A DNA stretch of 64,000 nt. Source: Paracoccaceae bacterium. Its GTDB lineage: Bacteria; Pseudomonadota; Alphaproteobacteria; Rhodobacterales; Rhodobacteraceae. Position 1 is the first letter of the stretch. Each line of letters starts with the position of its first letter. The translations under genes and the position numbers were made by a program. The stretch is from assembly GCA_026419405.1 (NCBI GenBank), contig JANZZL010000005.1:6689-70688 (forward strand), in the 5' to 3' direction. Shown here in pieces: positions 8,819-35,647 of this stretch. The notes under the pieces are model-generated. The model made no database searches and was not told where the DNA came from. It worked only from the letters and a program-made list of their open reading frames with translations.

Positions 8819-11286
8819 GCGTGCACCAGCCCCTGCCGCACGACGCGGCCGCCCTGCACGTCACCGGGCGGGCGCGCTACATCGACGACATCCCCGTGCC
8901 CGCGAACACGCTGCACCTCGCCTTCGGGCTCTCCTCGGTCGCCGCCGGGCGCTGGACGGCGATGGACCTCTCGGCGGTGCGCGCCGCGCCGGGGGTGGTG
9001 GCGGTGCTGACGGCGGCCGACCTGCCGCATGCCAACGACGTCTCGCCCGCGCCGGCCTTCCACGAGGAGATGCTCTCGTCGGGCGAGGTGCACTATCTCG
9101 GGATGCCGCTCTTCCTCGTGGTCGCCGAGAGCCACCTCGCCGCGCGCAGGGCGGCGCGGCTCGCCCGCGTGAGCTACGAGGAGCGCGCGCCGGTCCTCAC
9201 CATCGACGAGGCGCTCGCCGCGGACTGGCGCTTCGAGGAGGGCCCGCGGATCTGGGAGACGGGCGACGCCGAGGCCGCGATCGCCGCCGCGCCGCGGGTG
9301 GTCGCGGGGCGGATCGAGATCGGCGGGCAGGAACATTTCTACCTCGAGGGCCAGGCGGCGCTGGCGCTGCCGCAGGAGGGGGGTGACATGGTCGTCCACG
9401 CCTCCTCGCAGCACCCGACCGAGATCCAGCACAAGGTGGCCGAGGCGCTCGGCGTGCCGATGCACGCGGTGCGGGTCGAGGTGCGCCGGATGGGCGGCGG
9501 CTTCGGCGGCAAGGAAAGCCAGGGCAACGCGCTGGCGGTGGCCTGCGCGGTCGCGGCACGGGCCACGGGCCGGCCCTGCAAGATGCGCTACGACCGCGAC
9601 GACGACATGATGATCACCGGCAAGCGGCACGACTTCCGCATCGACTACCGCGTCGGGATCACGCCCGAGGGGCGCATCCTCGGCATCGTCTTCGAGCAGT
9701 TCTGCCGTTGCGGCTGGAGCCTCGACCTGAGCCTGCCGGTCGCCGACCGGGCGATGCTGCATGCCGACAACGCCTATCACCTGCCCGCGGCGCGGATCGT
9801 CAGCCACCGGCTGCGCACCAACACCCAGTCGGCCACCGCCTTCCGCGGCTTCGGCGGGCCGCAGGGCATGCTGGGGATCGAGCGGGTGATGGACCACATC
9901 GCCCATGCGCTGGGCCGCGATCCGCTCGAGGTGCGGCGGCTGAACTTCTACCGCCCGGCGGCGGCGCGGGCGGGGGGGCCGTCTGCCCCCCCGGCGCCTT
10001 CGGCGCGCCCCCCCGAGAGTATTTCCGACAGGATGAAGGAGCCGGAAGCGGAGGCGACGCCCGACCTCGCCTGGCACGGGGCCGAGGGGGGAGCAGTGCC
10101 GCAGGCGGCAGCCCGGACACCGCCGACCGTCGGCGCGACGGACGCCCAGACCACGCCCTACGGGCAGCCGGTCGAGGACTTCGTGCTGCACGAGCTGGTG
10201 GCGGAGCTCGCGCGGACCTCGGACTACGCGGCGCGGCGCGACGCGGTGCGGGCCTGGAACGCCGCCAGCCCGATCCTGAAGAAGGGGATCGCGCTCACGC
10301 CGGTGAAGTTCGGCATCAGCTTCACGCTGACGCATCTCAACCAGGCCGGCGCGCTCGTCCACGTCTACCAGGACGGCTCGATCCACATGAACCATGGCGG
10401 AACCGAGATGGGACAGGGCCTGTTCCGCAAGGTGGCGCAGGTGGCCGCGGCGGCCTTCGGGGTGGATGTCTCGGCGGTGAAGATCACCGCGACCGACACC
10501 GCCAAGGTGCCCAACACCTCGGCCACCGCCGCCTCCTCGGGCAGCGACCTCAACGGCATGGCGGTCAAGGCCGCCTGCGAGGCGATCCGCGAGCGCATGG
10601 CCGCGCATCTTGCGGCCCGGCACCAGGCCGACCCGGCCTCGGTCGTGTTCGAGGGCGGCCGGGTGCGGGTGGCGGGCGCCGACTACAGCTTCGCCGAGGT
10701 CGCGCACGACGCCTGGGCGAACCGCGTCAGCCTCTCGGCCACGGGCTTCTACCGGACGCCGAAGATCGTCTGGGACCGGATCCGCGGCCGGGGCCGGCCC
10801 TTCTACTACTTCGCCTATGGTGCCGCCGTCACCGAGGTGGTGATCGACACGCTGACCGGCGAGAACCGCATCCTGCGGGCCGACATCCTGCACGACTGCG
10901 GCGCCTCGCTGAACCCGGCGATCGACATCGGCCAGATCGAGGGCGGCTACGTGCAGGGCGCGGGCTGGCTGACCACCGAGGAGCTTGTGTGGGACGCCAA
11001 GGGGCGGCTCAGGACGCACGCGCCCTCGACCTACAAGATCCCGGCCTGTTCCGACCGGCCGCGGGTGTTCAACGTGGCGCTCTGGCCCGGCGAGAACCGC
11101 GAGGAGACGATCTACCGCTCGAAGGCGGTGGGCGAGCCGCCGCTGATGCTGGGCATCTCGGCGCTGATGGCGCTGTCGGACGCGGTGGCCGCCTGCGGCG
11201 ACGGCACCGTCTACCCCGCGCTCGACGCGCCGGCCACGCCGGAGCGGGTGCTGGCGGCGGTGCGCCGCGTCAGGGGGGCGGCATGA
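8815..11286 (+). CDS. xdhB: Xanthine dehydrogenase molybdopterin-binding large subunit, carrying an in-frame repeat-derived insertion
   Basis: GTG at 8815 overlaps the xdhA stop (GTGA). Has [32 protein letters not shown] and a conserved C-terminal Mo-binding region. Residues about 380-445 are Pro/Ala-rich and contain repeat copy A. Confidence 0.9.
9972..10039 (+). repeat. Repeat family copy A (inside xdhB, in frame)
   Basis: gggggggccgtctgccccccc-ggcgccttcggcgcg-cccccccgagagtatttccgacaggatgaagg. The right arm is identical to copy D. Confidence 0.85.
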
Positions 11287-12284
11287 GCCTCGACCTCGAG
11301 GCCCTGCGCGCCGCCGTGGCCCGCGAGGGCCGCGTCGCCCGCGTGGTCGTGGCCGAGGCGAAGGGCTCGGCCCCGCGCGAGGCCGGCGCGGCGATGCTGG
11401 TCTGGCCGGGCGGCCAGGAGGGGACGATCGGCGGCGGGGCGCTGGAATGGCAGGCCACGGCGCGCGCCCGCGCGCTGCTCGACCGGGCCGCGCAGGTCGC
11501 GGGCGCCAGGGTGGACCGCCAGGCGCTCGGCCCCGACCTGCAGCAGTGCTGCGGCGGGGCGGTCACGCTGGTGACCGAGGTCTTCGACGCGGACGCGCTC
11601 GACCGGCTTGCCCCGGCCGCGGGCCTCGTCGCGCGGCGCGTCGCGGGCGGGGCGGAGGCGGGAACGTCGGACGGCGGAATGTCGGACGGGGCCGAGATGC
11701 CGCTTGCGGTGCGCCGGCGGCTCCGGGCGGCGCGCGGAGAGGGCGCGCGCGGCGCGACGGCGCTGATCGAGGGCTGGCTGGTGGAGCCGCTTGCCGCGCC
11801 CGCGCGCCAGGTCTGGATCTGGGGGGCGGGGCACGTGGGCCGCGCGCTCGTGGCCGTGCTCGCGCCGCTGCCCGAGCTGTCGCTCACCTGGATCGACACC
11901 GCCGCGGAGCGGTTCCCCGCGGCGGTTCCGCCGGGGGTCGAGACGGTGGTGGCGGCGGACCCGGCCGCGCTCGTGCCCTTCGCGCCGCCGCGGGCCGAGC
12001 ACTTCGTCCTGACCTATTCGCACGCGCTCGACCTCGCGCTCTGCCATGCGCTGCTCGGGCGCGGCTTCGCGCGCTGCGGGCTGATCGGCTCGGCCACGAA
12101 GCGCGCGCGCTTCCGCCGGCGGCTCGCCGAGCTCGGCCATGCGCCGGAGGCGATCGCGCGGATCGACTGCCCGATCGGCGACCCCGCGCTCGGCAAGCAT
12201 CCGCAGGCGATCGCGATCTCGGTCGCGGCGGCGCTGCTGGCGGCGGGTCGGCGGAGCGCGGGCGCAAGGGAGGGCGCGGCATGA
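11283..12284 (+). CDS. xdhC: Xanthine dehydrogenase accessory/maturation protein XdhC
   Basis: ATGA overlap with the xdhB stop. XdhC/CoxI-like features: GSAPREAGAAMLV, GTIGGGALE, WIWGAGHVGRAL Rossmann-like motif. Confidence 0.85.
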   Translation: MSLDLEALRAAVAREGRVARVVVAEAKGSAPREAGAAMLVWPGGQEGTIGGGALEWQATARARALLDRAAQVAGARVDRQALGPDLQQCCGGAVTLVTEVFDADALDRLAPAAGLVARRVAGGAEAGTSDGGMSDGAEMPLAVRRRLRAARGEGARGATALIEGWLVEPLAAPARQVWIWGAGHVGRALVAVLAPLPELSLTWIDTAAERFPAAVPPGVETVVAADPAALVPFAPPRAEHFVLTYSHALDLALCHALLGRGFARCGLIGSATKRARFRRRLAELGHAPEAIARIDCPIGDPALGKHPQAIAISVAAALLAAGRRSAGAREGAA

Positions 12285-13840
12285 GGCAGGCCGAGGGGAT
12301 GCTGCTCGAGGTCGAGGGCCTGACCAAGGCCTATCCCGGCGTGGTGGCCAACAGCGGGGTGAGCTTCGCGGTCGCCCCCGGTGAGGTGCATGCGCTTCTG
12401 GGCGAGAACGGGGCAGGCAAGTCCACGCTGGTCAAGACCGTCTACGGCCTGATCCGGCCCGACGCGGGGCGGATGCGGCTTGAGGGGCGCGACTACGCCC
12501 CCGCCAGCCCGAGCGAGGCGCGCCGGGCCGGCGTGGCGATGGTGTTCCAGCACTTCTCGCTGTTCGAGGCGCTGGGCGTGGCCGAGAACGTGGCGCTGGG
12601 CATGGAGACGCCGCCGCCGATGCGCGAGCTGTCAGGCCGGATCCGCGAGGTGAGCCAGGCCTACGGCCTGCCGCTGGACCCCGAGCGGCTGGTGGGCGAC
12701 CTCTCGGCGGGCGAGCGCCAGCGGGTGGAGATCGTGCGCTGCCTGCTGCAGGACCCCAAGCTCCTGATCATGGACGAGCCGACGAGCGTGCTAACCCCGC
12801 AGGAGGTGGAGATCCTGTTCCACACGCTCAGGAAGCTTTCGGCCGAGGGCACGGCGATCCTCTACATCTCGCACAAGCTCGAGGAGATCCGCGCGCTCTG
12901 CGATGCCGCGACGATCCTGCGCCACGGCAAGGTCGTGGCGACCTGCGACCCGAAGGCCTGCACGGCGCGGGAGATGGCGGAGATGATGGTGGGGGCGAGC
13001 TTCGCCGCGCCGGCAAGGGCCGAGCGGCCGCGGGGCGCGCCGCTTGTCGAGGTGCGCGGCCTGTCCATGCCCTCGGCCAACCCCTTCGGCACGCCGCTGC
13101 GCGAGGTGAGCTTCTCGGTGGCGGCGGGCGAGATCCTCGGCATCGGCGGCGTCGCCGGCAACGGCCAGGACGAGCTGCTGGCGGCGCTGTCGGGCGAGGC
13201 CCGGGCGGCGCCGGGCGCGATCCGGTTCCGCGGCGCGGACATCGGCGGGCTCGGCCCGGTCGAGCGGCGGCGGCTCGGGCTCTGCGCGGCGCCCGAGGAA
13301 CGGCTGGGCCATGCCGCGGCGCCGGACATGAGCCTGACCGAGAACGCCTTGCTGACCGGGGTGGTGCGCGAGGGCCTTGCCACCCGCGGCTTCGTCGACT
13401 GGGGCCGGACCCGCGGCTTTGCCGAACGGATCATCCGGGCCTTCGACGTGCGCACGCCGGGGCCCGGCGTCGCGGCGCGGGCGCTCTCGGGGGGCAACCT
13501 CCAGAAGTTCGTGATCGGGCGGGAGGTGCTCCAGAGGCCCGAGGCGCTGGTCGTCAACCAGCCGACCTGGGGGGTGGATGCCGCCGCGGCGGCGGCGATC
13601 CGGCAGGCGCTGCTCGACCTCGCCTCCGGGGGCGCGGCGGTGATCGTGATCAGCCAGGATCTCGACGAGCTGCTCGAGATCGCCGATCGCTTCGCCGCGC
13701 TGAACGAGGGCCGGCTGAGCGCCCCGCGCCCGACGCAGGGCCTTTCGTTGGAGGAGATCGGACTGATGATGGGGGGAGCGCACGGGATGCACGAGGCCGA
13801 CATCGCGGCCGCGCACGAGGCCGAGGCCCATGCCGGCTGA
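12281..13840 (+). CDS. ABC transporter ATP-binding protein, duplicated ATPase (BMP/nucleoside-type system)
   Basis: ATGA overlap with the xdhC stop. Two ABC domains (GENGAGKST Walker A, LSAGERQRVEI signature; second domain GVAGNGQDEL, LSGGNLQK). Confidence 0.9.
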   Translation: MRQAEGMLLEVEGLTKAYPGVVANSGVSFAVAPGEVHALLGENGAGKSTLVKTVYGLIRPDAGRMRLEGRDYAPASPSEARRAGVAMVFQHFSLFEALGVAENVALGMETPPPMRELSGRIREVSQAYGLPLDPERLVGDLSAGERQRVEIVRCLLQDPKLLIMDEPTSVLTPQEVEILFHTLRKLSAEGTAILYISHKLEEIRALCDAATILRHGKVVATCDPKACTAREMAEMMVGASFAAPARAERPRGAPLVEVRGLSMPSANPFGTPLREVSFSVAAGEILGIGGVAGNGQDELLAALSGEARAAPGAIRFRGADIGGLGPVERRRLGLCAAPEERLGHAAAPDMSLTENALLTGVVREGLATRGFVDWGRTRGFAERIIRAFDVRTPGPGVAARALSGGNLQKFVIGREVLQRPEALVVNQPTWGVDAAAAAAIRQALLDLASGGAAVIVISQDLDELLEIADRFAALNEGRLSAPRPTQGLSLEEIGLMMGGAHGMHEADIAAAHEAEAHAG

Positions 13841-13876
13841 GGTCGCCCGGCGCCGTGCCTGCGGCCGCCGTGGCGC

Positions 13877-13930
13877 GGGGGGCCGCCTGCCCCCCGCGGC
13901 CCCCCGGGAGTATTTGCAACAGGCTGAAGG
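13877..13930 (+). repeat. Repeat family copy B (ABC ATPase | permease junction)
   Basis: ggggggccgcctgcccccc-gcgg-ccccccgggagtatttgcaacaggctgaagg. Ends 12 nt before the ATG at 13943. Confidence 0.85.
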
Positions 13931-13942
13931 GAGGGGTTGCGG

Positions 13943-15025
13943 ATGATCCGGCTGGAGAAGCGGCCCTCGCCTTCGCAGGGCTGGACGGCGGCGACGCCGC
14001 TGCTGGCCGTGGCGCTGACGATGCTGGCCGGGGGCGCGATGTTCGCCCTGCTCGGCAAGGACCCCCTGGCCGCGATCCGCACGATCTTCTGGGACCCCCT
14101 GTTCGGCGAGTTCGCCTGGTATTTCCGCGGCCAGCTTCTGGTCAAGGGCGGTCCGCTGATCCTGATCGCGATCGGGCTTTCGCTGGGCTTCCGGGCGGGG
14201 ATCTGGAACATCGGCGCCGAGGGTCAGTACATCATGGGTGCGCTCGCCGGCGCGGGCCTGGGGCTGGCGCTCTACCCCGACGCGGGGCGCTGGGTGTTCC
14301 CGCTGATGGTGGCGGCGGGCGCGGCGGGCGGCTGGGCCTGGGCGATGATCCCGGCGATCCTGAAGGTGCGGTTCCGCACCAACGAGATCCTGGTCTCGCT
14401 GCTGCTGGTCTATGTCGCGCAGAACCTGCTCGCCTCGGCCGCGCTCGGCTGGCTCAGGAACCCCGAGGGCGCGGGCTTTCCCGGCAGCCGGAACCTGTCG
14501 CAGTGGCCGGCGGCGGCGAACCCCGAGCTGATCCCCGGCACGGGGATGCACTGGGGCGTGGTGGCCGCGTTCCTGGCGGTGATCGGGGCCCATGTGCTGC
14601 TCTCGCGCCATCAGCTCGGCTATCACATCCGCCTCGCCGGGCAGGCGCCGCGGGCGGCGCGCTTCGCCGGCGTGAGTCCGGGGCGGCTGACGGTGTTCTG
14701 CATGGGCGTCTCCGGGGCGCTGGCCGGGATGGCGGGGCTCTTCGAGGTGACCGGGCCGGCCGGGCAGATCAGCATCGACTTCGCCTCGGGCTACGGCTTC
14801 ACGGCGATCATCGTGGCCTTCCTCGGGCGGCTCCACCCGGTCGGCATCCTGCTTGCGGGGCTGCTGATGGCGCTGACCTACGTCGGCGGCGACAACGCCG
14901 CGACGAACCTCGGGCTTCCCGCGGCGGCGATCCAGGCCTTCCAGGGGATGCTGCTGTTCTTCCTGCTCTCGGTGGACGTGCTGACCAACTACCGCATCCG
15001 CTTCGGCCGGAGGGAGATCGCCTGA
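13943..15025 (+). CDS. ABC transporter permease (BMP-type system)
   Basis: Hydrophobic multi-pass ORF. ATG at 13943 (MIRLEKRP) is preferred over the TTG at 13937. Preceded by a GGGAGG Shine-Dalgarno sequence just after repeat copy B. Confidence 0.85.
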   Translation: MIRLEKRPSPSQGWTAATPLLAVALTMLAGGAMFALLGKDPLAAIRTIFWDPLFGEFAWYFRGQLLVKGGPLILIAIGLSLGFRAGIWNIGAEGQYIMGALAGAGLGLALYPDAGRWVFPLMVAAGAAGGWAWAMIPAILKVRFRTNEILVSLLLVYVAQNLLASAALGWLRNPEGAGFPGSRNLSQWPAAANPELIPGTGMHWGVVAAFLAVIGAHVLLSRHQLGYHIRLAGQAPRAARFAGVSPGRLTVFCMGVSGALAGMAGLFEVTGPAGQISIDFASGYGFTAIIVAFLGRLHPVGILLAGLLMALTYVGGDNAATNLGLPAAAIQAFQGMLLFFLLSVDVLTNYRIRFGRREIA

Positions 15026-15960
15026 TGGACGCGCTTGTCTCGATCAACTGGGTGCTGCTCGCCGCCTCGCTGATGGTGGCGGCGACGCCGATCCTGCTGG
15101 CGGCCACGGGCGAGCTCGTGGTCGAGAGGGCGGGGGTGCTGAACCTCGGGGTCGAGGGAATGATGATCCTCGGCGCGATTTCGGGCTTCGCCGTGGGGGT
15201 GCGGACCGGCGCGCCGATCCTCGGCTTCGCGGCGGCGGCGCTCGCCGGGGCGGCGCTGTCGCTGCTGTTCGGCCTGCTCACCCAGATCCTCCTGTCGAAC
15301 CAGGTGGCCACGGGGCTTGCGCTCACCCTCTTCGGGCTCGGCCTCTCGGCGCTGCTCGGGCAGGGCTATGTCGGCATCAAGACGCCGGTGCTGGCCGACT
15401 GGAACGTGCCCGTGCTGTCCGACATCCCCGTGATCGGGCCGGTCCTGTTCCGGCACGACCCGATCCTCTACCTCTCGCTGCTGCTCGTCGCCGGGGTCTG
15501 GGCCTTCCTGCGCCACACCCGGGCCGGCCTCATCCTGCGCGCGGTGGGCGAGAGCCACGACGCGGCGCATGCGCTCGGCTACCGGGTGGTGGCCATCCGC
15601 CTTGCCGCCATCGCCTTCGGCGGGGCGCTGGCCGGGATGGGCGGGGCCTACATCAGCCTCGTGCGCGTGCCGCAGTGGACGGAAGGCATGACCGCCGGGG
15701 CGGGCTGGATCGCGCTGGCGATCGTGGTCTTCGCCTCGTGGAAGCCCTGGCGGGTGTTGCTCGGAGCCTATCTGTTCGGCGGCATCGCCGTGCTCCAGCT
15801 CAACCTGCAGGCCGCCGGGCTGAAGGTGCCCGTCGAAATCTTGTCGATGTCCCCGTATCTGGTAACGATCCTGGTGCTGGTCATCATCTCGTCCGACCGC
15901 TCGCGGGCGGCGCTGAGCGCCCCCGCCGCGCTCGGGCGCACATTCCACGCCTCGAGCTAG
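15025..15960 (+). CDS. ABC transporter permease (BMP-type system, second subunit)
   Basis: TGATG overlap with the previous permease. 311-aa hydrophobic protein (MDALVSINWVLLAAS..). Confidence 0.85.
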   Translation: MDALVSINWVLLAASLMVAATPILLAATGELVVERAGVLNLGVEGMMILGAISGFAVGVRTGAPILGFAAAALAGAALSLLFGLLTQILLSNQVATGLALTLFGLGLSALLGQGYVGIKTPVLADWNVPVLSDIPVIGPVLFRHDPILYLSLLLVAGVWAFLRHTRAGLILRAVGESHDAAHALGYRVVAIRLAAIAFGGALAGMGGAYISLVRVPQWTEGMTAGAGWIALAIVVFASWKPWRVLLGAYLFGGIAVLQLNLQAAGLKVPVEILSMSPYLVTILVLVIISSDRSRAALSAPAALGRTFHASS

Positions 15961-16012
15961 GGGCGCCACACGCGGCCGGGCACCGACCCGGCGGAAACAG
16001 GGAGAACCAAGG

Positions 16013-17095: not shown

Positions 17096-17118
17096 CCCGA
17101 CCCGGCGGGCAGGGTCCG

Positions 17119-17147
17119 GGAAGGGGCCCCGCGCGCGGGCCCCTTCC
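17119..17147 (+). terminator. GC-rich hairpin downstream of the BMP SBP gene
   Basis: Perfect 11-bp stem GGAAGGGGCCC / GGGCCCCTTCC with a 7-nt loop, 24 nt after the stop. No T-tract follows. Confidence 0.5.
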
Positions 17148-17196
17148 GCCTCGCGCGGGCCCTTGACGCGGCCGGCGGCGCCGGCTTGGTTCCGGC

Positions 17197-20264: not shown

Positions 20265-21056
20265 ATGACGCCCGCCCCCGACAAGGACTTTCCCTGGTGG
20301 CTCGTGGTCCTCGCCGGGATCGGCGCCTGGCTGTTCTGGAACGTCCTGTCGAACCCGGTCTACGCCGATGTGCTGGCCAAGCTGGCGCTCGGCATCCGCA
20401 TCACGCTGTTCGTGACCGTGGTCGCCTTCTCGCTCGCCTCGGCGCTGGGGCTGCTGCTCGCGGTGATGTCGCTCTCGCGCCGTCTGGTGGTGCGGCAGGC
20501 GGCGCGGTTCTACATCGAGGTGATCCGCGGCATCCCGATCATCGTGCTGCTGCTCTACGTCGCCTTCGTCTTCGCGCCCCTTGCCGTGGCGGGCGTGAAC
20601 GCGGTGCTGGGGTGGATCGGCGCCGAGCCGGTCCGGCCGCGCGACTTCTCGCTGCTCTGGCGCGCGATCATCGCGCTGACCATCGCCTATTCGGCCTTCA
20701 TCGCCGAGGTGTTCCGCGCCGGGCTGCAGTCGGTGGACAAGGGCCAGACCGAGGCGGCGCAGTCGCTGGGCCTGAGCCGCTGGCAGACCTTCCGCCACGT
20801 CGTCTTCCCGCAGGCCTTCCGGGTGATCCTGCCGCCGCTCGGCAACGACTTCGTGGCGATGGTGAAGGATTCCTCGCTGGTCAGCGTGCTGGGCGTGACC
20901 GACATCACCCAGCTCGGCAAGGTGATCGCGGCGGGCAACTTCCGCTACTTCGAGACCTACAACGTGGTTGCCCTGCTCTATCTCTCGATGACGGTCACGC
21001 TGTCGCTGCTGCTGCGGCGTCTGGAGCAGCGCCTGAGGCGGCAGGAGGCGCGGTGA
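20265..21056 (+). CDS. Polar amino acid ABC transporter permease (His/Glu/Gln/Arg/opine family)
   Basis: 263 aa. Has the EAA-loop region (GQTEAAQSLGLSRWQTFRHVVFPQAFRVILPPLGN). Confidence 0.85.
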   Translation: MTPAPDKDFPWWLVVLAGIGAWLFWNVLSNPVYADVLAKLALGIRITLFVTVVAFSLASALGLLLAVMSLSRRLVVRQAARFYIEVIRGIPIIVLLLYVAFVFAPLAVAGVNAVLGWIGAEPVRPRDFSLLWRAIIALTIAYSAFIAEVFRAGLQSVDKGQTEAAQSLGLSRWQTFRHVVFPQAFRVILPPLGNDFVAMVKDSSLVSVLGVTDITQLGKVIAAGNFRYFETYNVVALLYLSMTVTLSLLLRRLEQRLRRQEAR

Positions 21057-21119
21057 GGGGGGAGCGAGGGGTTTCGCACCCCTCGCGCTCCCCGCGGCGT
21101 ATTTGCAACAAGAGGAAGG
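21057..21119 (+). repeat. Repeat family copy C (amino-acid permease | dcp junction)
   Basis: ggggggagcgaggggtttcgcacccctcgcgctccccgcggcgtatttgcaacaagaggaagg. Starts immediately after the permease TGA. Confidence 0.8.
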
Positions 21120-23769: not shown

Positions 23770-26121
23770 CTACTCGCCATAGGGGATCCAGACCGTCTTG
23801 ATCTCGGTCGCGGCCTCGAGGAACTCCTGCCCCTCGCCCTCCGGTCCCGCCCAGTCGCGGCCGCGGCCGTGGTTCACCCAGGTGCGCTTGAGGTTGCCCG
23901 CCGCCTCGCGCTCGATCATGGCCGAGAGGTCGGAGGAGGAGAACGACCAGACCGCATCCACGTCGAGGTGCCCGGCGAGCACCCGGCCCAGCTCGGCATG
24001 GCTGCCGGGAACGATGTTGACCACCCCGCCCGGCACGTCCGAGGTGTCGAGCACCTGGTAGAAGTCGGTCGCGGCCAGCGGGAAGGGCTCGGAAGGCACC
24101 AGCACGCAGGTGTTGCCCATGGCGATCGCCGGCGCCATGATCGAGACGAAGCCGAGCAGCGGCGCCTCGTCCGGGCAGAGCGCGCCGATCACCCCCACGG
24201 GCTCGGTCATGGCGAGCGCGACGCCCCTCAGCGGCACGCCCTTGACGCGGCCTTCGTGCTTGTCGGCCCAGGCCGCCCAGGTGAAGAGCCGCCGGATTGC
24301 CGCCTCCACCTCGGCCTCGCCGCGCCGGCCGGTCAGCTCGCGCAGGCGCCCGGCGAACTCCGCCGCGCGCGCCGAGAGGTTCTCGGCGATGTAGTAGAGG
24401 ATCTGGCCCCGCAGGTGCCCCTGGCTCCGTGCCCAGCCCGCGCGCGCCGCCTGCGCCGCCTCGACCGCGTTGCGGATGTCCTTGCGGTTGCCGACGGGCG
24501 CATGGCCGAGAAGCCGCCCGCCCGGCGACCAGATCGCGCGGGAATGGCCGCCGTCCGGGCGGGCCTGCCTGCCGCCCACGTAGACCTTCGCGGTCCGGTC
24601 GAGCCCCGCGGGCGCGCCGCCCTCCGCCGGCGCCGCGACGGGCGCGCGCGGGGCGAGCCGCGGCCCCCTGCGGGCGGGGCGGAGGTAGGCGCGCAGGCCC
24701 TCCCAGCCGCCCTCGCGGCCGAAGCCCGACTCCTTGACGCCGCCGAAGCCGGCGGCCGCGTCGAACAGGTTGGTCGCGTTCACCCAGACCACGCCCGCCC
24801 TGAGCTTCGGCGCGATGTCGAGCGCGAGGTTGACGTTCTCGGTCCAGACCGTCGCGGCAAGCCCGTAGCGGGTGTTGTTGGCCAGCTGCACTGCCTCGGC
24901 CGGGGTGCGGAAGGTCGCGCTCACCAGCACCGGGCCGAAGATCTCCTCCTGCATCAGCATCGCCGCGGGCGAGAGGCCGGTGATCAGCGTCGGCGGGTAG
25001 AAGCAACCCCGCTCGGGCAGCGTCACCTGCGCGCGGTGGACCTCGCCCTCCGCCCCGCCCTCCTCGACCATCCGGGTGATGGTGGCAAGCTGCACCGGGT
25101 CCACCACCGCGCCCACGTCGATGCACTTGTCGAGCGGGTCGCCGACCCGCAGCCCGTCCATCCGCCGCCTCAGCTTCGCGTGGAACCGCTCTGCCACGCC
25201 CTCCTGCACCAGCAGGCGGCTCCCCGCGCAGCAGACCTGGCCCTGGTTGAACCAGATCGCATCGACCAGCCCCTCGACCGCCGAGTCGAGATCGGCGTCG
25301 TCGAAGACGATGTAGGGGCTCTTGCCGCCGAGCTCGAGCGTCAGCGCCTTGCCCGTGCCGGCGGTCGCCTCGCGGATCCTGCGGCCGACCTCGGTCGAGC
25401 CGGTGAAGGCCACCTTGTCCACCTCGGCCGCGACCAGCGCCGCCCCCGTCGCCCCGTCGCCGGTGACGATGTTGACCACGCCCTTCGGCACCCCGGCCTC
25501 GCGGCAGATCTCGGCGAAGAGCAGCGCCGTCAGCGGCGTGTACTCGGCGGGCTTGAGCACGATGGTGTTGCCCGCCGCCAGCGCCGGCGCGACCTTCCAG
25601 GCCAGCATCAGCAGCGGGAAGTTCCAGGGGATCACCGCGCCGCAGACCCCGTGCGGCACCATCCCCGGCATCTCGCCCTCGAGAAGCTGCGCAAGCCCCG
25701 CGTGGTAGAGGAAGTGGCGCGCCGCAAGCGGCACGTCGATGTCGCGGCTCTCGCGGATCGGCTTGCCGTTGTCGAGCGTCTCGAGCACGGCGAAGAGCCG
25801 GGCATGCTTCTGGAGCAGCCGCGACAGCGCGTAGAGCACCCGCGCCCGCGCATGCCCGCCCTGCCGCGACCACCGCCCGAAGGCCCGCCGCGCGGCCGCC
25901 ACCGCCGCCGCGACATCCGCCGCCGAGCCCTGCGTCACCTCGGCCAGGACCTCGCCGGTGGCGGGGTTGCGCGTCGCGAAGGTCTCGCCCGGCGCGGTGA
26001 AGGCGCCGTCGACGAAATGCCCGAACCGCCGGCCGTGCCGGTCGAGCCAGGCCAGCGCCTCCCCCGCCGCCTCCGGCGCGGGCCCGTAGTCCATGCTCTC
26101 GAAGATCTCGCGGACGTTCAT
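23770..26121 (-). CDS. Fused aldehyde dehydrogenase: complete ALDH domain plus a C-terminal partial ALDH-like domain
   Basis: 783 aa. The first roughly 490 aa carry ELGGKSP and GQVCCAGSR (catalytic Glu/Cys). The second roughly 290 aa are ALDH-like (cofactor-binding half) and I see no catalytic Cys motif. Confidence 0.85.
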   Translation of the reverse strand: MNVREIFESMDYGPAPEAAGEALAWLDRHGRRFGHFVDGAFTAPGETFATRNPATGEVLAEVTQGSAADVAAAVAAARRAFGRWSRQGGHARARVLYALSRLLQKHARLFAVLETLDNGKPIRESRDIDVPLAARHFLYHAGLAQLLEGEMPGMVPHGVCGAVIPWNFPLLMLAWKVAPALAAGNTIVLKPAEYTPLTALLFAEICREAGVPKGVVNIVTGDGATGAALVAAEVDKVAFTGSTEVGRRIREATAGTGKALTLELGGKSPYIVFDDADLDSAVEGLVDAIWFNQGQVCCAGSRLLVQEGVAERFHAKLRRRMDGLRVGDPLDKCIDVGAVVDPVQLATITRMVEEGGAEGEVHRAQVTLPERGCFYPPTLITGLSPAAMLMQEEIFGPVLVSATFRTPAEAVQLANNTRYGLAATVWTENVNLALDIAPKLRAGVVWVNATNLFDAAAGFGGVKESGFGREGGWEGLRAYLRPARRGPRLAPRAPVAAPAEGGAPAGLDRTAKVYVGGRQARPDGGHSRAIWSPGGRLLGHAPVGNRKDIRNAVEAAQAARAGWARSQGHLRGQILYYIAENLSARAAEFAGRLRELTGRRGEAEVEAAIRRLFTWAAWADKHEGRVKGVPLRGVALAMTEPVGVIGALCPDEAPLLGFVSIMAPAIAMGNTCVLVPSEPFPLAATDFYQVLDTSDVPGGVVNIVPGSHAELGRVLAGHLDVDAVWSFSSSDLSAMIEREAAGNLKRTWVNHGRGRDWAGPEGEGQEFLEAATEIKTVWIPYGE

Positions 26122-26122
26122 G

Positions 26123-26175
26123 CCTTCATCCTGTCGGAAATACTCTCGGGGGGTCCGGGGGGCAGACGGCCCCCC
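26123..26175 (-). repeat. Repeat family copy D (deoC | aldehyde dehydrogenase junction)
   Basis: The reverse complement reads ggggggccgtctgcccccc-gga-ccccccgagagtatttccgacaggatgaagg, followed by cATG of the ALDH gene. It fills most of the 66-nt spacer. Confidence 0.85.
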
Positions 26176-26187
26176 GGCCCCGCCGCC

Positions 26188-28742: not shown

Positions 28743-28822
28743 GGCAGTCCCGACGCCGCCGACGCGCCAGACCTACGCCCGCACGCCGGCGATGTCCACA
28801 GGCGGGTCCTGCCCCGCGGGCG

Positions 28823-28899
28823 TGGCGATCCCGGAAGGACTCGAACCCTCAGCCTGCTGATTAGAAGTCAGCTGCTCTATCCAGTTGAGCTACGGGACC
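28823..28899 (-). tRNA. tRNA-Arg (anticodon UCU)
   Basis: The reverse complement reads GGTCCCGTAGCTCAACTGGATAGAGCAGCTGACTTCTAATCAGCAGGCTGAGGGTTCGAGTCCTTCCGGGATCGCCA. It folds as a 77-nt cloverleaf with a 7-bp acceptor stem, anticodon loop CU-UCU-AA, T-loop TTCGAGT and an encoded CCA. Confidence 0.9.
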
Positions 28900-28955
28900 G
28901 CTGCCCCGCTTTTGCGCCACCGGGCGGCCCGGATCAAGCCGCTTGGCGGGCGCGC

Positions 28956-29414: not shown

Positions 29415-29725
29415 CAGTGCGTCCAGGCGCTGCGCCGCTCGGGGGCGAAGTTCTCGCCGTAGCCGCGCGGACGGATGTTCGGCCGGCGCTTCTTCGGCTC
29501 GATCACCTCCGCCTCGATGCCGTGCTCGCGCGCATAGGCGAGCGCGGCCTCCTTCGTCTCGAACCGCAGCCGCACCTGCGACTGGGTGTCGGTCGTGGAG
29601 GTCCAGCCCATCAGCGGATCGACCTCGCGCGGCGCCGCCGGCGCGAATTCCAGCACCCAGGATCGCGTCTTCGCGGTGCCCGACTGCGTGGCCGTCCTGG
29701 CCGGCCGGTAGATCCTTGCGCGCAT
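29414..29725 (-). CDS. ETC complex I subunit conserved region protein (NDUFS4 homologue)
   Basis: ATG at 29725 gives [41 protein letters not shown], matching the NDUFS4/ETC_C1 family. Its stop overlaps the GNAT start by 1 nt. Confidence 0.8.
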
Positions 29726-29815
29726 GGGAAGCCTTCTCCGAACGCCTCCGGGCCTTATCGCGGAAGCCCGCAGGAAGCGCAAGAAGCCCGCCCCGGGCCG
29801 CCCGCCGGGCCCCGG

Positions 29816-32344
29816 CTACTCCTGCGCCCGGAGCACCCGCGCCGGGCGGGCCGACAGCGGGCGCCAGGCGAAGGCGAGCCCGGCAAGCAGCGTCGCCGCG
29901 GCCCCGCCGGCCACGATCAGCACCGCCGAGACCGGCTCGAACCGGTAGTCGGCCTCCATCACGAAGCGCATCACTGCCCAGCCGGCGACCGCCCCGGCGG
30001 CGATGGCCACGAGCCCCGCCACCGCACCGAGGATCGCCGAGCGGAGCGCGAAGCAGGCCAGCACCTGCGCGCGCACCGCGCCGAGCGTCTTCAGGATCGC
30101 CGCCTCGAAGACGCGCGCCGCCTCGCCCGCCGCCGCCGCGCCGACGAGCACGATCGCCCCGGTCGCGAGCGTCACCCCCGCCGCGGCCGTGACCGCCGCG
30201 GCGATGCCGCCGAGGATGCCGGCGACGCGGTCCACGACGTCCCTCACCCGGATCGCCGTGATGTTCGGGTAAGCCCCGGCCAGGTCGCGCAGGATCGCCG
30301 CCTCGGCCGCCTCCTCGGCATGGATCGTGGCGATGAAGCTGTGCGGCGCGCCCTCCAGCGCGGCGGGGTTCATCGCCATGACGAAGCCGATCCCGGCGGT
30401 CGAGAAATCGACCGCGCGGAAGCTCGTCACCTCGGCGGTGATGTCGCGGCCGAGGATGTTGACCGTGATCTCGTCGCCGAGCCTGAGCCCGATCTCGGCC
30501 GCCTCCTCGGCGGCGAAGCTCACCTGCGGCGGCCCTTCGTAGGCCTCGGGCCACCAGGCGCCCTCGGTGATCACCGTGCCCTCGGGCGGCGCGGCGGAAT
30601 AGGTGACACCGCGGTCGCCGCGCACGACCCAGTGGCCGCCGGCCACCTCCTCGGCCGGGCGGCCGTTGATCCGGGTGATGATCCCGCGCAGCATCGGGGC
30701 GGTCTCGACGCGCGCGACCGCAGGGTCGGCGGCCAGGCGCGCGCGGAAGCCCGCGATCTGGTCGGGCTGGATGTCCACCACGAAGTAGGAAGGGGCGACC
30801 TCGGGCAGTTCCGTGGCGATGGCGTTGCGCAGGTTCCAGTCGATCTGCCCGACTGCCGCCAGGACCGAGAGCCCCAGGCCCAGCGACAGCACCACCGAGG
30901 TGGCCTCGGTCCCCGGCCCGCCCACCGCCCCGAGCGCGAGCCGCGCCGCCGTCCGGCCGCGCAGCGCCCGCGCCCGCGCCAGCCGCCGCGCCAGCGCCCG
31001 TGCCCCGCGCGCCGCCAGGAGCAGGAGCGCAAGCGCCCCGGCGATCCCCGCCACCGTCCCGAGCGCGAGGCGCGGCAGCCCCGAGAACAGCGCCGCCGCG
31101 CCCGCCAGCGCCGCGAGGAGGACGGCGGTCGCCGCCAGGAAGGCCGGCCGCGGCAGGGCGCGCGCGGTCTCCACGGCCCCGCGGTAGAGCGCGGCCGGAC
31201 GCACCTGCTCGGTCCGCGCCAGCGGCCAGAGCGTGAACAGCAGCGCCGCGAGGCCGCCGTAGAGCGCCGCCTCGGCCAGCGGTGCGGGGTAGAGCCCGAA
31301 GGCCGCCGGCAGCGGCAGGCGGGCCGCGATCAGCGGCGCAAGCAGCAGCGGCAGCGCCGCGCCGAGCACGAGCCCGAGCCCGATGCCCAGAAGCGCCAGC
31401 ACCGCGATCTGGAGGAAGTAGGCGGCAAGGATCGTGCGCCGGTCCGCGCCCAGGGTGCGCAGCGTGGCGATCACCGGAACCTTGCCCTCGATGTAGGCCC
31501 TGACCGAGGCGGCCACGCCGACCCCGCCGACCGCGAGCCCGGCAAGCCCGACCAGCGCGAGGAAGGCGCCCAGCCGCTCGACGAAGCGCGACACGCCGGG
31601 GGCCCCGTCGCGGGCGTCGCGCCAGCGCGCCCCGGCATCCCGGAACCGGGCCGCCGCCTCCGCCTGAAGCGCGGCGAGATCGGCTCCCGCCGGCAGCGCC
31701 AGCCGGTAGCGCGTCTCGAACAGCGTGCCCTCCGCCAGAAGCTGCGACTGCGCCAGCGCCCCGGTCCTGACCAGCGTCCGCGGGCCGAGGCCGAAGCCGT
31801 CCCCGGCCGCGTCCGGCTCCCGCAGCAGGACCGCCGTCAGCACGAACGCCTGCGTGCCGAGCCGGAACCGGTCGCCGGGCACCAGGCCGAGCCGGTCGGC
31901 CAGCACCCGCTCCATCACCCCGCCGGGCAGCCCGCCCGCGCCCGCCAGCGCCTCGTCCAGACCGATCGGCGGGTCGAGCGCCACCTCCCCCTTCAGCGGA
32001 TAGGCGCCGTCCACGCCCTTCACCTGGGTCAGCGCCCGCTCGGGGCCGCCCGCGCGGTCGACCACGACCATCGAGCGGAAGTCCACGATCTCCGAAACCT
32101 CGATGGCCACGTCCTCCATCCATGCCCGCTCCTCCGGGCCCGCGTAGCGGTAGGTGAAGGTCAGCTCGGCATCGCCGCCGAGGATCGCGGCCCCCTCGCG
32201 CGCCAGCCCCGCCTCGATCGCCGCGCGCACCGACCCCACCGCCGCGATCGCCGCGACGCCGAGCGCGAGACAGGCGAGGAACACGCGGAACCCCCGCAGC
32301 CCGCCGCGCAGCTCGCGCCGGGCGATGGCCCAGGCCGGGCTCAC
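29816..32344 (-). CDS. ABC transporter permease with two FtsX-like domains (YbbP-like)
   Basis: About 842 aa, with many TM segments in two clusters. Probable GTG start at 32344 (VSPAWAIARRELRGG), just after the AGAGGAAGG of repeat copy E. The exact start is uncertain. Confidence 0.8.
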   Translation of the reverse strand: MSPAWAIARRELRGGLRGFRVFLACLALGVAAIAAVGSVRAAIEAGLAREGAAILGGDAELTFTYRYAGPEERAWMEDVAIEVSEIVDFRSMVVVDRAGGPERALTQVKGVDGAYPLKGEVALDPPIGLDEALAGAGGLPGGVMERVLADRLGLVPGDRFRLGTQAFVLTAVLLREPDAAGDGFGLGPRTLVRTGALAQSQLLAEGTLFETRYRLALPAGADLAALQAEAAARFRDAGARWRDARDGAPGVSRFVERLGAFLALVGLAGLAVGGVGVAASVRAYIEGKVPVIATLRTLGADRRTILAAYFLQIAVLALLGIGLGLVLGAALPLLLAPLIAARLPLPAAFGLYPAPLAEAALYGGLAALLFTLWPLARTEQVRPAALYRGAVETARALPRPAFLAATAVLLAALAGAAALFSGLPRLALGTVAGIAGALALLLLAARGARALARRLARARALRGRTAARLALGAVGGPGTEATSVVLSLGLGLSVLAAVGQIDWNLRNAIATELPEVAPSYFVVDIQPDQIAGFRARLAADPAVARVETAPMLRGIITRINGRPAEEVAGGHWVVRGDRGVTYSAAPPEGTVITEGAWWPEAYEGPPQVSFAAEEAAEIGLRLGDEITVNILGRDITAEVTSFRAVDFSTAGIGFVMAMNPAALEGAPHSFIATIHAEEAAEAAILRDLAGAYPNITAIRVRDVVDRVAGILGGIAAAVTAAAGVTLATGAIVLVGAAAAGEAARVFEAAILKTLGAVRAQVLACFALRSAILGAVAGLVAIAAGAVAGWAVMRFVMEADYRFEPVSAVLIVAGGAAATLLAGLAFAWRPLSARPARVLRAQE

Positions 32345-32348
32345 CGCC

Positions 32349-32414
32349 CCTTCCTCTTGTCGCAAGTACGCCCGGGGGGAGTCGCCGCAGGCGACGGGGG
32401 GCAGGCGCCCCCCC
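32349..32414 (-). repeat. Repeat family copy E (ABC ATPase | FtsX permease junction)
   Basis: The reverse complement reads ggggggcgcctgcccccc-gtcgcctgcggcgac-tccccccgggcgtacttgcgacaagaggaagg, followed 4 nt later by the GTG at 32344. Confidence 0.8.
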
Positions 32415-32438
32415 TTCCCCGGCCTGCCGCCCGGCGCC

Positions 32439-33132
<694 letters not shown>

Positions 33133-33134
<2 letters not shown>

Positions 33135-33822
33135 GGCATCCTTCGGTCGGCTGGCCTCATGGGGATATGGCGCGCTCCGGCGCCTTCGCAACCTCGCCGC
33201 CGCGGTCGCGATCGGCGCCGGCGCGGCCGCGGCCGAACCCGTCACCATCGCCGCGCTTGGCGACAGCCTGACCCAGGGCTACGGCCTGCCCGAGGCCGAC
33301 GGGCTCGTGCCGCAGCTCCAGGCCTGGCTCGACGCGCAGGGCGCCGGGGTGCGCCTGATCAACGCCGGGGTCTCGGGCGATACCACCGCGGGCGGGCTCT
33401 CGCGCATCGGCTGGACGCTCACGCCCGAGGTCGATGCGCTGATCGTCGCGCTCGGCGGCAACGATCTCCTGCGCGGCATCGACCCGGCGGTCAGCCGCCG
33501 CAACCTCGAAGGCATCCTCGAGGCCGCGCGCGCGGCCGGCGTGCCGGTGCTGCTCGCCGGGCTTCCCGCCCCGCCCAACTACGGGCCCGACTACAAGGCG
33601 GCCTTCGACGCGATCTGGCCCGAGCTGGCCGCCGAACACGACGCCATCCTCGTGGCCAACCTCCTCGCGCCGCTGGCCGATGCGGTCCGCAACGGCACAG
33701 GCGCCGGCACCCTGCTCCAGCCCGACGGCCTGCACCCCTCCGCCGAGGGCGTGCGGCTCGTGGTCGAGGCGCTCGGGCCCAGGGTCCTGGAACTCGCGGC
33801 CCGCGCTGGCGGACGCTCCTGA
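33133..33822 (+). CDS. SGNH/GDSL arylesterase-thioesterase (TesA-like), secreted
   Basis: GDSLTQGYG block I, GVSGDTT and LGGNDLLRG blocks. The putative ATG at 33133 shares a CATG with the divergent ABC ATPase start. The start is uncertain. Confidence 0.75.
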
Positions 33823-33830
33823 GCGGGCGC

Positions 33831-34397
33831 TCAGTCCTTCGCGCGCTCGACGTAGCTGTTGTCGGCGGTGTTGATCACGATGCGGGTGCCCGCGTCGATG
33901 TGCGGCGGCACCATGACGCGCACGCCGATGTCGGTCATCGCCGGCTTGTAGGACGAGGACGCCGTCTGCCCCTTCACCACCGGCTCGGTCTCGGTGATCT
34001 CCACCGTGATCTTCTGCGGCAGCTCGATCGAGATCGCGCGGCCCTCGTGGATCTGCAGGAAGACGCGCATCCCCTCCTGGAGATAGACCTTCTGGTCGCC
34101 GATCACGTCCTCGCCCACGGTGATCTGCTCGTAGGTCTCGGGCTCCATGAAGTGGAAGCCCTCGCCGTCCTCGTAGAGGTAGTCGTAGGCCTTCTCCTCG
34201 ACATGGGCCCGCTCCACCTGGTCGGTGGTCTTCCAGCGCTCGCTCACCTTCACCCCGTCCGAGATCCGGCGCATGTCCACGCTCGTCGTCGGCGTGCCCT
34301 TGCCGGGGTGGAAGTTCTCGGCCGAGAGCACGACGTAGAGCTTGCCGTCGATGTCGAGCACGTTGCCCTTGCGGAGCGAGGAGGCGATGACTTTCAT
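33831..34397 (-). CDS. efp: Elongation factor P
   Basis: 188 aa. Canonical EF-P ([25 protein letters not shown]..) with Lys at the modification loop. Confidence 0.95.
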
Positions 34398-34509
34398 GGG
34401 CGGTCGTCCTTGTGCAGGCTGGGGCGCCCGGCTATGGCGGGGCCGTCGAGGGTGCCCCTAGCGCATCTTCCGCCGTTCCGCCAGAGAGAAGCCGCCCCCG
34501 GAGCCACCC

Positions 34510-35553
34510 GTGACCGCCCCCGACACCCCCTGGTGGGACCCCGGCCGCCACGCCGACCGCCGGCCGCTGCTGCTCGCCCGCAACCGCATCCGGTCGGCGA
34601 TCCGCGCCTGGTTCGAGGCGCGCGGCTTCACCGAGGCCGACCCCGCCGCGCTCGCCGTCTCGCCGGGCAACGAGGCGCATCTGCACGCCTTCGCCACCGA
34701 AGCCGTCGCGCCCGACGGCACGGCGCGCCGCCTCTACCTGCACACCTCGCCGGAATTCGCGCTCAAGAAGCTGCTCGCCGCGGGCGAGGAGCGGCTCTTC
34801 GCCTTTGCCCATGTCTGGCGCAACCGCGAGCGCGGGGCCCTGCACGCGCCCGAATTCACCATGCTCGAATGGTATCGCGCGGCTGCGCCCTACGAGACGC
34901 TGATGGAGGACTGCGCCGCGCTGCTGGCGCTGGCCGCGCGCGCCGCGGGCGCCGGCACGCTGCGCTTCCGCGACCGCAGCTGCGACCCCTTCGCCCCGCC
35001 CGAGCGGCTCACCCTGGCCGAGGCGCTGGCCCGCCATGCGGGGCTCGACCTCCTCGCCACGATCCGCCCCGACGGGACGACCGACGCCGCCCTGCTCGCC
35101 GAGGCCGCCCGGTCCGCCGGCCTCGCCATCCGCGCGGGCGACGGCTGGTCGGACATCCTTTCGCGCCTGCTCGTGACCTTCGTCGAGCCCAATCTCGGCC
35201 TCGGCCGGCCGACGATCCTCGACCGCTACCCCGCCGCCGAGGCCGCGCTCGCCCGGCGCGCGCCCGACGATCCGCGCCTGGCCGAACGCTTCGAGCTCTA
35301 CGCCTGCGGGGTGGAACTCGCCAACGGCTTCGGCGAGCTGACCGACCCGGCCGAGCAGCGCGGCCGCTTCGAGGCCGAGATGGACGAGATGGCACGGGTC
35401 CACGGCACCCGCTACCCGATCGACGAGGATTTCCTCGCCGCCCTTGCCCGGATGCCCCCCGCGAGCGGCATCGCCCTCGGCTTCGACCGGCTGGTGATGC
35501 TCGCCACCGGCGCGCCGCGCATCGACGACGTGCTCTGGGCCCCGCCGCCCTGA
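34510..35553 (+). CDS. epmA: EF-P lysine beta-lysyltransferase (GenX/PoxA, truncated LysRS-like)
   Basis: 347 aa. Class II aaRS catalytic-core motifs without an anticodon domain (FTMLEWY, ELANGFGELTDP, GIALGFDRLVM). Divergent from efp. Confidence 0.85.
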   Translation: MTAPDTPWWDPGRHADRRPLLLARNRIRSAIRAWFEARGFTEADPAALAVSPGNEAHLHAFATEAVAPDGTARRLYLHTSPEFALKKLLAAGEERLFAFAHVWRNRERGALHAPEFTMLEWYRAAAPYETLMEDCAALLALAARAAGAGTLRFRDRSCDPFAPPERLTLAEALARHAGLDLLATIRPDGTTDAALLAEAARSAGLAIRAGDGWSDILSRLLVTFVEPNLGLGRPTILDRYPAAEAALARRAPDDPRLAERFELYACGVELANGFGELTDPAEQRGRFEAEMDEMARVHGTRYPIDEDFLAALARMPPASGIALGFDRLVMLATGAPRIDDVLWAPPP

Positions 35554-35587
35554 CGCGCCACGCCGACACGCCGGCCCGACCCGCCCC

Positions 35588-35647
35588 CCTCTTCCCCTTT
35601 CTCAAGTATCCTCGGGGGAGCGCGAGGGGGCAGACGGCCCCCTCGCC
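35588..35647 (-). repeat. Repeat family copy F (3' end of the DUF2783-like gene)
   Basis: The reverse complement reads ggcgagggggccgtctgccccctcgcgctcccccgaggatacttgagaaaggggaagagg. This is the most diverged right arm. It contains the gene's last codons and its stop. Confidence 0.75.

Follow-up and report, generated by a model that had tools for sequence, protein, structure and literature searches.

The locus and its repeat copies

The stretch analysed here, hereafter the window, comprises 64,000 nucleotides (64 kb) of contig JANZZL010000005.1 from a Paracoccaceae bacterium (assembly GCA_026419405.1, a metagenome-assembled genome of the Rhodobacteraceae) and carries six copies, A to F, of a short hairpin-bearing repeat at or within its genes (Table 1). 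Pfam assignments place copy B between genes for an ABC ATPase and a BPD_transp_2 permease, copy C between a BPD_transp_1 permease and a Peptidase_M3 gene (dcp), copy D between DeoC and Aldedh genes, and copy E between ABC_tran and FtsX permease genes, in agreement with the neighbours named in a preliminary description of this DNA. That description placed five copies at gene boundaries, which held; copy A, left unplaced there, lies in frame within the open reading frame (ORF) of xdhB and encodes a 23-residue peptide. Copy F was rightly assigned to the 3' end of the DUF2783 gene, which it overlaps in a convergent spacer, and it also holds the stop codon of that ORF. The repeat unit, of about 50-75 bp, is hairpin-based and resembles the repetitive extragenic palindromic (REP) sequences of other bacteria. 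The six copies do not form a family of their own but are local members of an order-wide one, and on balance we consider it probable that they are solo members of an ancient, non-autonomous REP-like family spread through the Rhodobacterales.

Direct reading of each stretch confirmed the six copies at their previously described positions, and a profile search (nhmmer) with 136 copies from other genomes recovered exactly these six from the window (E = 1.6e-11 to 5e-3), all of them solo and none paired, with no seventh copy below E = 1. The hairpin pattern GGGGGNCSNCTGCCCCC, allowing up to one mismatch, matched five copies (A, B, D, E and F) against 0.15 expected, a count reached in none of 100 shuffles, and the tail pattern GTATTTSCRACAGGATGAAGG, allowing up to three mismatches, matched five (A-E) against 0.01 expected. 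The reported identity of A and D was borne out over 31 nucleotides. The loop CCGYCTG given for five copies was found in A, B, D and F; that of E reads CGCCTG. Copies C and F represent a longer-stem variant, GCGAGGGG-loop-CCCCTCGCGCTCCCC.

All six copies point in the direction of the neighbouring genes. The tail of copy D, 12 nt past the deoC stop, ends 1 nt ahead of the ATG of the aldehyde dehydrogenase (ALDH) gene (26121-26119); that of copy E is followed after 4 nt by an in-frame GTG (32344-32342) and that of copy B after 12 nt by the permease ATG (13943). Copy C begins immediately 3' of the permease stop codon (21054-21056), and the dcp ATG (21175) lies 55 nt past its tail.

Table 1. Repeat copies, host genes and other features of the window and of comparison loci
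Feature	Sequence	Position	Strand	Description
xdhB	window	8815..11286	+	xanthine dehydrogenase molybdopterin subunit; host gene of copy A
Copy A	window	9972..10039	+	G7-CCGTCTG-C7, second hairpin GGCGCC-TTC-GGCGCG, C7-GAGAGTATTTCCGACAGGATGAAGG; E = 3.8e-11
Copy B	window	13876..13930	+	short form; 36 nt past ABC ATPase stop
Copy C	window	21057..21119	+	long-stem variant GGGGAGCGAGGGG-loop-CCCCTCGCGCTCCCC; E = 5e-3, envelope 21065-21119
Copy D	window	26123..26176	-	short form; nearest of the window copies to the family consensus; E = 1.6e-11
Copy E	window	32349..32415	-	second hairpin GTCGCC-TGC-GGCGAC; ABC_tran / FtsX permease junction
Copy F	window	35589..35647	-	long-stem variant, divergent tail GAGGATACTTGAGAAAGGGGAAGAGG; E = 9.5e-9
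DUF2783 ORF, 77 aa	window	35602..35835	-	Pfam domain at residues 3-59
Copy in xdhA	L126	8904-8969	-	antisense, in frame in the inter-domain linker; translated SFFLPEISSGGRGCAARGADGPP
deoC/ALDH junction	L198			ALDH 91% aa identity to window ALDH; filled, loop CTGTCTG
deoC/ALDH junction	L199			ALDH 88% aa identity to window ALDH; filled, decayed copy
deoC/ALDH junction	L200			ALDH 87% aa identity to window ALDH; filled, first hairpin decayed, large nested palindrome
deoC/ALDH junction	L201			ALDH 84% aa identity to window ALDH; filled, loop TTTTCCA
deoC/ALDH junction	L202 (Tabrizicola)			ALDH 79% aa identity to window ALDH; empty, TAG-GACC-ATG
Gene transfer agent cluster copy, example from L169-L197	L169	1353-1406
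Gene transfer agent cluster copy, example from L169-L197	L183	8200-8253
Gene transfer agent cluster copy, example from L169-L197	L190	3719-3772
tRNA gene	window	28826-28899	-	sole Rfam match of the window at the gathering threshold
Paralogous gene 1	window	465-1982	-	522-608 with 24709-24795 and 1081-1237 with 25271-25427, 73-74% nucleotide similarity to paralogous gene 2
Paralogous gene 2	window	23770-26121	-	Aldedh-family ALDH
Tandem array	window	47537-47632		at least 6 units of 12 nt, GCGCCCTCACCG-like
GC shift	window	58001-64000		GC drops from ~73% to 64-69%

Family anatomy and distribution

Each unit consists of a G5-7/loop/C5-7 hairpin, an optional palindrome that is perfectly paired but hypervariable in sequence, and a conserved, asymmetric module, C5-6-GAGGATATTT-nnGnCAGAAGAAGG, whose conservation fades about 14 nt past TAYTT. 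The first hairpin was recognised by pattern in five of the six window copies. It is also present in 47 of 48 copies of the window subfamily, which had been selected by their tail alone, so that the two arms co-occur beyond the window, as the preliminary description expected. Its loop measures 4-7 nt (CTGTCTG in 42 copies, CGCTG in 24, CCAG in 11, CCGTCTG in 10, with others besides), and one or two covarying pairs lengthen its stem, the stem-adjacent one being C:G in 45, A:T in 28 and T:A in 9 of 124 copies. The spacer between hairpin and module either measures 3 nt (46 copies; mostly GGA, GCA or ACA) or forms a second hairpin. These second hairpins are nearly always perfect Watson-Crick palindromes of highly diverse sequence (70 distinct among 80), and a perfect stem of at least 5 bp occurs in 56 of the 88 spacers that measure at least 10 nt (5.9% in shuffles). 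In the stems, G-T mismatches are as rare as A-C mismatches, which indicates palindromy at the DNA level or templated correction instead of RNA-only selection; an excess of G-U over A-C, as a sign of RNA-specific selection, was looked for and not found. Tail-to-tail pairs with complementary variable tails account for 17 of 132 copies (about 13%; 3 in the control), forming a palindrome of about 150 bp.

The slot between the C-runs can also take a larger nested palindrome, GTCGCCATTG...CAATGGCGAC, seen in L200 (about 1430-1475) and L136 (1674-1763); since it recurs at unrelated loci, the slot may be the target of a second small repeat.

No intrinsic terminator was called at the six window sites on either strand, and the TATTT of the tail sits 12-30 nt past the stem, not directly after it as in a Rho-independent terminator. 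By eye or by scan, no consensus match to a sigma-54 or sigma-70 promoter was found in the tail, and none of the copies coincided with a promoter-like call. At the gathering threshold, Rfam covariance models matched only a tRNA gene in the window and none of the copies; with E <= 1 they gave nothing meaningful in four copy-rich loci. RNA fold z-scores of -1.8 to +0.9 are ordinary at 73% GC, the first hairpin being predicted in every case.

A pattern scan with one genome per species returned at least 120 loci, nearly all of them from Rhodobacterales, in Gemmobacter, Paracoccus, Rhodobacter, Cereibacter, Ruegeria, Tabrizicola, Rhodovulum and other genera, and 233 copies were collected at E < 1e-3 in all fetched sequence. 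Density is about 1 per 10 kb. A BLAST search with copy D against plasmids and chromids found Paracoccus replicons bearing GGACCGGGGGGCCGTCTGCCCCCCGGACCCCCCGAGGATATTTGGACAAGAAAGAAG, and a metagenome scan with the tail of the window subfamily yielded 36 loci, many from assembly Ga0209906. Four copies lie within 5 kb in locus L025, where ORF translations judged by eye revealed no transposase, the genes there being of housekeeping type (purD-like, putative membrane protein and aspartate kinase-like). Neither the sequences of the family nor a description of it was found in the searchable literature (open-access papers only), and this REP-like family is apparently undescribed.

Positional stability and filled or empty sites

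Synteny with the window, at a nucleotide identity of 89-92%, was found in the metagenomic contig Ga0209906_100146, which has all six copies at orthologous positions. Elements are identical at 349 of 365 positions (95.6%) and their 60-nt flanks at 600 of 724 (82.9%; Fisher p = 2e-10), with copy A preserved at 68 of 68 positions, copy B at 51 of 54 and copy E at 63 of 66. The non-coding spacers beside B, C and F have diverged heavily, and the elements there are almost intact. The elements are thus positionally stable over about 10% nucleotide divergence and evolve more slowly than their flanks. What differences exist within them lie mostly in the tail, at TTT[G/C]C[A/G]AC, positions that also vary among paralogs.

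Filled and empty sites could be compared at the deoC/ALDH junction (Table 1), where copy D stands in place of the 4-nt spacer of the empty Tabrizicola site; the lyase/3-keto junction provides another such case. At the ATPase/permease junction, the site of copy B, locus L126 has a decayed antisense copy and L127 nothing recognisable. As the preliminary description had noted for the window, no terminal inverted repeats (TIRs), transposase or target site duplications (TSDs) were found: the ends of a solo unit are unlike, a G-run hairpin at one and a purine-rich tail at the other, and no duplication was seen at deoC/ALDH or at two sites in gene transfer agent clusters described below (sites 2 and 3), in genomes diverged enough that short TSDs could be obscured.

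These observations bear on the possibility that the copies are purely selfish remnants of miniature inverted-repeat transposable elements (MITEs) or of REPINs, with no host role, their conservation reflecting conversion or recent spread and any contribution to Shine-Dalgarno (SD) sequences or peptides being accidental. The existence of paired palindromic forms and of decayed orthologous copies (xdhB in L127, deoC/ALDH in L199, ATPase/permease in L126) would fit such an origin, and ortholog differences concentrated at paralog-variable tail positions are those expected of conversion. The xdhB site, moreover, is occupied by different canonical variants in different genera. However, all six sites have been kept with elements more conserved than flanks, no transposase partner, TIR or TSD was seen, and the consensus is recognisable throughout the order, which is unusual for selfish MITEs. 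Such elements normally turn over by genus or species. We therefore regard a purely selfish remnant as unlikely.

Orientation and placement relative to genes

The preliminary description held that copies are always oriented with transcription. Beyond the window this does not apply: with genes called by a crude finder based on GC content at third codon positions (GC3), 137 family copies comprised 44 in convergent, 25 in tandem-antisense, 20 in tandem-sense and 3 in divergent position, and 48 copies of the window subfamily, mostly from its ~90% relative, comprised 21 convergent, 10 tandem-antisense, 10 tandem-sense and 1 divergent. Neither count shows a bias towards the sense orientation, which is not a property of the family, and a lack of bias was the outcome that the preliminary description had itself set against its proposal. 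Independent gene calls or annotation bear out two antisense cases, a copy in L002 between two minus-strand genes of a lyase operon and the copy in xdhA of L126 (Table 1). In tight intercistronic junctions sense copies numbered 29-43 and antisense copies 15-27 (p ~0.05-0.07), an excess that stems from the window, its orthologs and gene transfer agent clusters; an independent genome sample had none (sense 12-19, antisense 10-17). Six of six sense copies in one window corresponds to a two-sided p = 0.03 before allowing for the selection of the observation. We infer that the all-sense pattern of the window arose through sampling, or through a mild filter acting within operons, and does not reflect the design of the element.

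Gene ends flank copies 136 times and gene starts 73 times; copies lie mainly close behind stop codons and avoid divergent (promoter) spacers. Gene starts within 31 nt are found on the tail side in 17 cases and on the hairpin side in 8. A replication-linked orientation was also considered and set aside: GC skew in the window follows gene strand and is therefore uninformative on this point.

The suggestion that the tail supplies an SD sequence stood in part. For copy D the tail lies where the SD must lie, and in the four orthologs with a readable start (L133, L198, L199 and L200) the ALDH ATG is 0-2 nt past the tail, so that the element would now supply the ribosome-binding region of ALDH; for copies E and B the same role is plausible.

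On the view taken in the preliminary description, the repeat would be a transcription-oriented intercistronic RNA module, in which the hairpin and alternative pairing of the C-runs steer mRNA processing and downstream translation and in which the orientation to genes belongs to the function. It would account for the six sense copies of the window, five of them at gene boundaries, for tails that adjoin start codons at D, E and B, and for the nearness of gene starts to the tail side; in predicted folds of B and F, a G-rich, SD-like run downstream is available for pairing with the second C-run. Copies in gene transfer agent operons are also mostly sense, and one count for tight junctions shows a mild sense excess (29 vs 15, p = 0.049). 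Against these points, the excess disappears in the independent sample, the family has no orientation bias (20 sense and 25 antisense; 10 and 10 in the subfamily) and favours convergent spacers, verified antisense copies occur inside operons and in xdhA, a decayed one sits at the L126 ATPase/permease junction, and the stems show no tolerance of G-U pairs. An RNA module of this kind is accordingly improbable.

Copies translated as protein sequence

Copy A forms part of an insertion of about 170 nt in xdhB, in a loop between ...RRLNFY and TTPYGQ... (about 9934-10168) that is missing (NFY to TTPY) from some orthologs of 764-767 aa. Many genera have in this loop the element-derived peptide GGLSAP..PPE[SD]IS..K[KM]. 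At the DNA level, Dinoroseobacter shibae has an intact short consensus copy at the site and L126 an intact long form; the copy in L127 is decayed, and in L124, an 86%-identical relative, it is mostly lost. The frame in which the hairpin part is read differs by genus (GGLSAP or GCLPP), but the C-run-GAGGATATT part yields PPEDI in every case. Such a pattern is hard to reconcile with simple vertical descent and suggests that the site was re-occupied, or converted from other copies.

The crystallised XdhB of Rhodobacter capsulatus (PDB 1JRO, chain B) reads ...NFYDPPERGGLSAPPSPPEPIATKKTQTTHYG... in the same loop as copy A, with the element-derived peptide ..ERGGLSAPPSPPEPIATKK.. at residues ~381-398, aligned to window positions 9934-10168. 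Mammalian xanthine oxidoreductase aligns to XdhB as two blocks, with the break at the element loop. We considered whether the remainder of the insertion (..DLASRGA..) is the decayed right half of a paired element, and found no support for this, the profile having no match there on the reverse strand. Two further copies are coding: the antisense copy in xdhA of L126 (Table 1) and copy F, from which the DUF2783 ORF takes its final 18 codons (..TGARGPSAPSRSPEDT) and its TGA stop.

Copies in gene transfer agent clusters

Scanning viral contigs brought up 29 loci, mostly homologous head-tail clusters of about 14 kb of the gene transfer agent (GTA) type, identified by terminase, portal, DUF2460 and GTA_TIM domains. 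Three junctions of such RcGTA-type clusters are occupied in many genera: terminase/portal, tape-measure/g12 (DUF2460; site 2) and g14/g15 (GTA_TIM; site 3). In L169 the second is empty (TGA-GGGGCAGAG-ATG) and the third has a similarly short, element-free spacer. Copies are mostly in sense orientation here, with antisense copies in L180 and L192.

Recurrence at these three junctions is one of several observations consistent with a DNA recognition site for a conserved Rhodobacterales protein, either of nucleoid or gyrase/IHF type, as in bacterial interspersed mosaic elements (BIMEs), or acting in an uptake or GTA signal. Such a site would account for placement independent of strand and of transcription direction, for strictly Watson-Crick stems and for an order-wide consensus with a conserved 16-nt C-run-GAGGATATTT head, and the GCCGTCTG loop of some copies resembles the core of the DNA uptake sequence (DUS) of Neisseria. 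However, the analysis identified no protein partner, loop sequences differ across the family (CTGTCTG, CGCTG, CCAG and others), a density of ~1 per 10 kb is far below that of known uptake sequences, and occupancy of GTA clusters may merely mirror tolerant intercistronic spacers. We consider a recognition site of this kind very improbable.

The loop together with the first stem base reads GCCGTCTG at window positions 9979-9986 (A), 26162-26169 (D) and 35630-35637 (F). The Neisseria DUS has the consensus GCCGTCTGAA, with an invariant core of 10-12 nt at very high density; GCCGTCTG corresponds to its first 8 nt, and only some loops of the family read so. Because the loop varies across the family, this likeness is probably a coincidence. 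A Neisseria-type DUS was rejected on the same variability and on density.

The genus-specific canonical variants at xdhB and the three recurrent GTA junctions would also be consistent with an order-wide cis module that is maintained by selection together with a conserved putative trans partner, either a hairpin-specific enzyme that was domesticated or a protein that binds DNA. This partner would repeatedly seed the same sites anew, or make the copies there uniform, and would generate the hypervariable perfect palindromes between the two C-runs. We offer this only as a speculative and distinctly unlikely account.

A probable ancient non-autonomous repeat family

The explanation that we prefer, solo copies of an ancient non-autonomous REP-like family, would involve spread at the DNA level by a process that recognises hairpins and leaves no TSD, such as single-strand transposition by a REP-associated tyrosine transposase (RAYT) or an IS200/IS605-like enzyme, or an equivalent, and retention by selection or conversion. 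In transcripts, the all-GC hairpin could in either orientation block 3' exonucleases or act as an intercistronic stem-loop, by analogy with REPs. Where a copy lies in sense, its A/U-rich TATTT and purine-rich tail would incidentally become the ribosome-binding region of the adjoining gene, as at D, E and probably B.

Several observations weigh against this explanation. Searches (tblastn) with Escherichia coli RayT and IS608 TnpA as single-sequence queries had no match in 1.29 Mb of element-bearing loci, nor in plasmids and chromids of Paracoccus and other Rhodobacterales. The GTAG/CGTC tag that typically marks the 5' foot of a REP palindrome is not present, the bases 5' of the G-run being variable save for one or two covarying pairs. 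Recent transposition was not seen, all six sites being common to the window and its relative, and presence/absence differences were found only between more distant taxa. The high conservation of the elements could come from gene conversion instead of selection. Effects at the RNA level (exonuclease block, RNase E entry, SD supply) are putative, and the RNA fold z-scores are unremarkable. The gene calls behind the orientation counts come from the crude GC3 finder, which was compared with annotation or precomputed calls in only a few loci.

Of most interest in the family are a consensus shared across the order, the signs of constraint, palindromes that are hypervariable yet perfect, and the xdhB loop, which has been occupied in frame repeatedly. 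If confirmed, it would give the Rhodobacterales a named order-wide REP-like family, one that concerns models such as Rhodobacter capsulatus, Cereibacter sphaeroides, Paracoccus denitrificans and Dinoroseobacter shibae and is relevant to the processing of operon mRNA, GTA clusters included. Its coding copies are clear cases of repeat DNA turned into protein sequence, one of them in a crystallised enzyme, and order-wide conservation combined with evolution slower than that of the flanks would make it a good system for the question of whether REPs are selfish or domesticated, or a mixture of the two. At present the elements yield spurious small ORFs and shifted start codons in annotation. A 77-aa ORF was called across the repeat-bearing ATPase/permease spacer of D. 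shibae (L128, 14837-15060), and ALDH starts were called on an ATG or TTG inside the element tail in L198 (437) and L201 (1501).

Three other features of the window were recorded (Table 1): a tandem array, a pair of paralogous genes, and a drop in GC content at the right end, which may mark the edge of a compositionally different segment.

Comparison with known systems

Correia elements of Neisseria and the ERIC/IRU (enterobacterial repetitive intergenic consensus/intergenic repeat unit) sequences of Enterobacteria are likewise small and co-transcribed and may alter the mRNA processing or expression of their neighbours, and the paired form of our family is, like them, a palindrome of ~150 bp; in contrast, the Rhodobacterales solos are without TIRs, TA or other target duplications, promoters or IHF motifs. 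Rickettsia palindromic elements are alike in behaviour only, as in-frame palindromic inserts that are translated into additional surface peptide and kept at orthologous sites in different species, but they belong to a different taxon, measure 100-150 bp and are mainly genic, whereas the present family is mainly intergenic. Among alphaproteobacteria, Br-REP1 and Br-REP2 of Bradyrhizobium are REP-type repeats in 3'-UTRs, recently recognised from transcript data (PMC5082802). They belong to a different order and are likened here by description, the passages of that paper on Rhodobacter and on REP elements drawing no tie to the Rhodobacterales family.

In REPINs the predominant replicating unit is the inverted doublet; in Rhodobacterales doublets make up only ~13%. 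The comparison with REPs and BIMEs made in the preliminary description was apt as to the general neighbourhood. The Rhodobacterales family differs from the REPs and BIMEs of Enterobacteria and Pseudomonas, which are associated with RAYT transposases, in having a flank, on the 3' side, conserved over 16-30 nt instead of 4, in lacking the GTAG/CGTC tag and any detected RAYT, in a consensus that is order-wide and not specific to species or genus, and in its in-frame coding copies. With these REPs and BIMEs it nevertheless shares the short GC-rich hairpin beside a flank that is asymmetric and conserved, dispersal in hundreds of copies, in both orientations, to post-gene convergent or intercistronic spacers, the occasional inverted doublet folding into one long hairpin, the absence of TIRs and TSDs, and long-term positional stability. 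As in REPs generally, which are imperfect palindromes of 20-40 nt, the unit is a short GC-rich palindrome present in many copies and, apart from the in-frame copies, it is extragenic and located behind genes.

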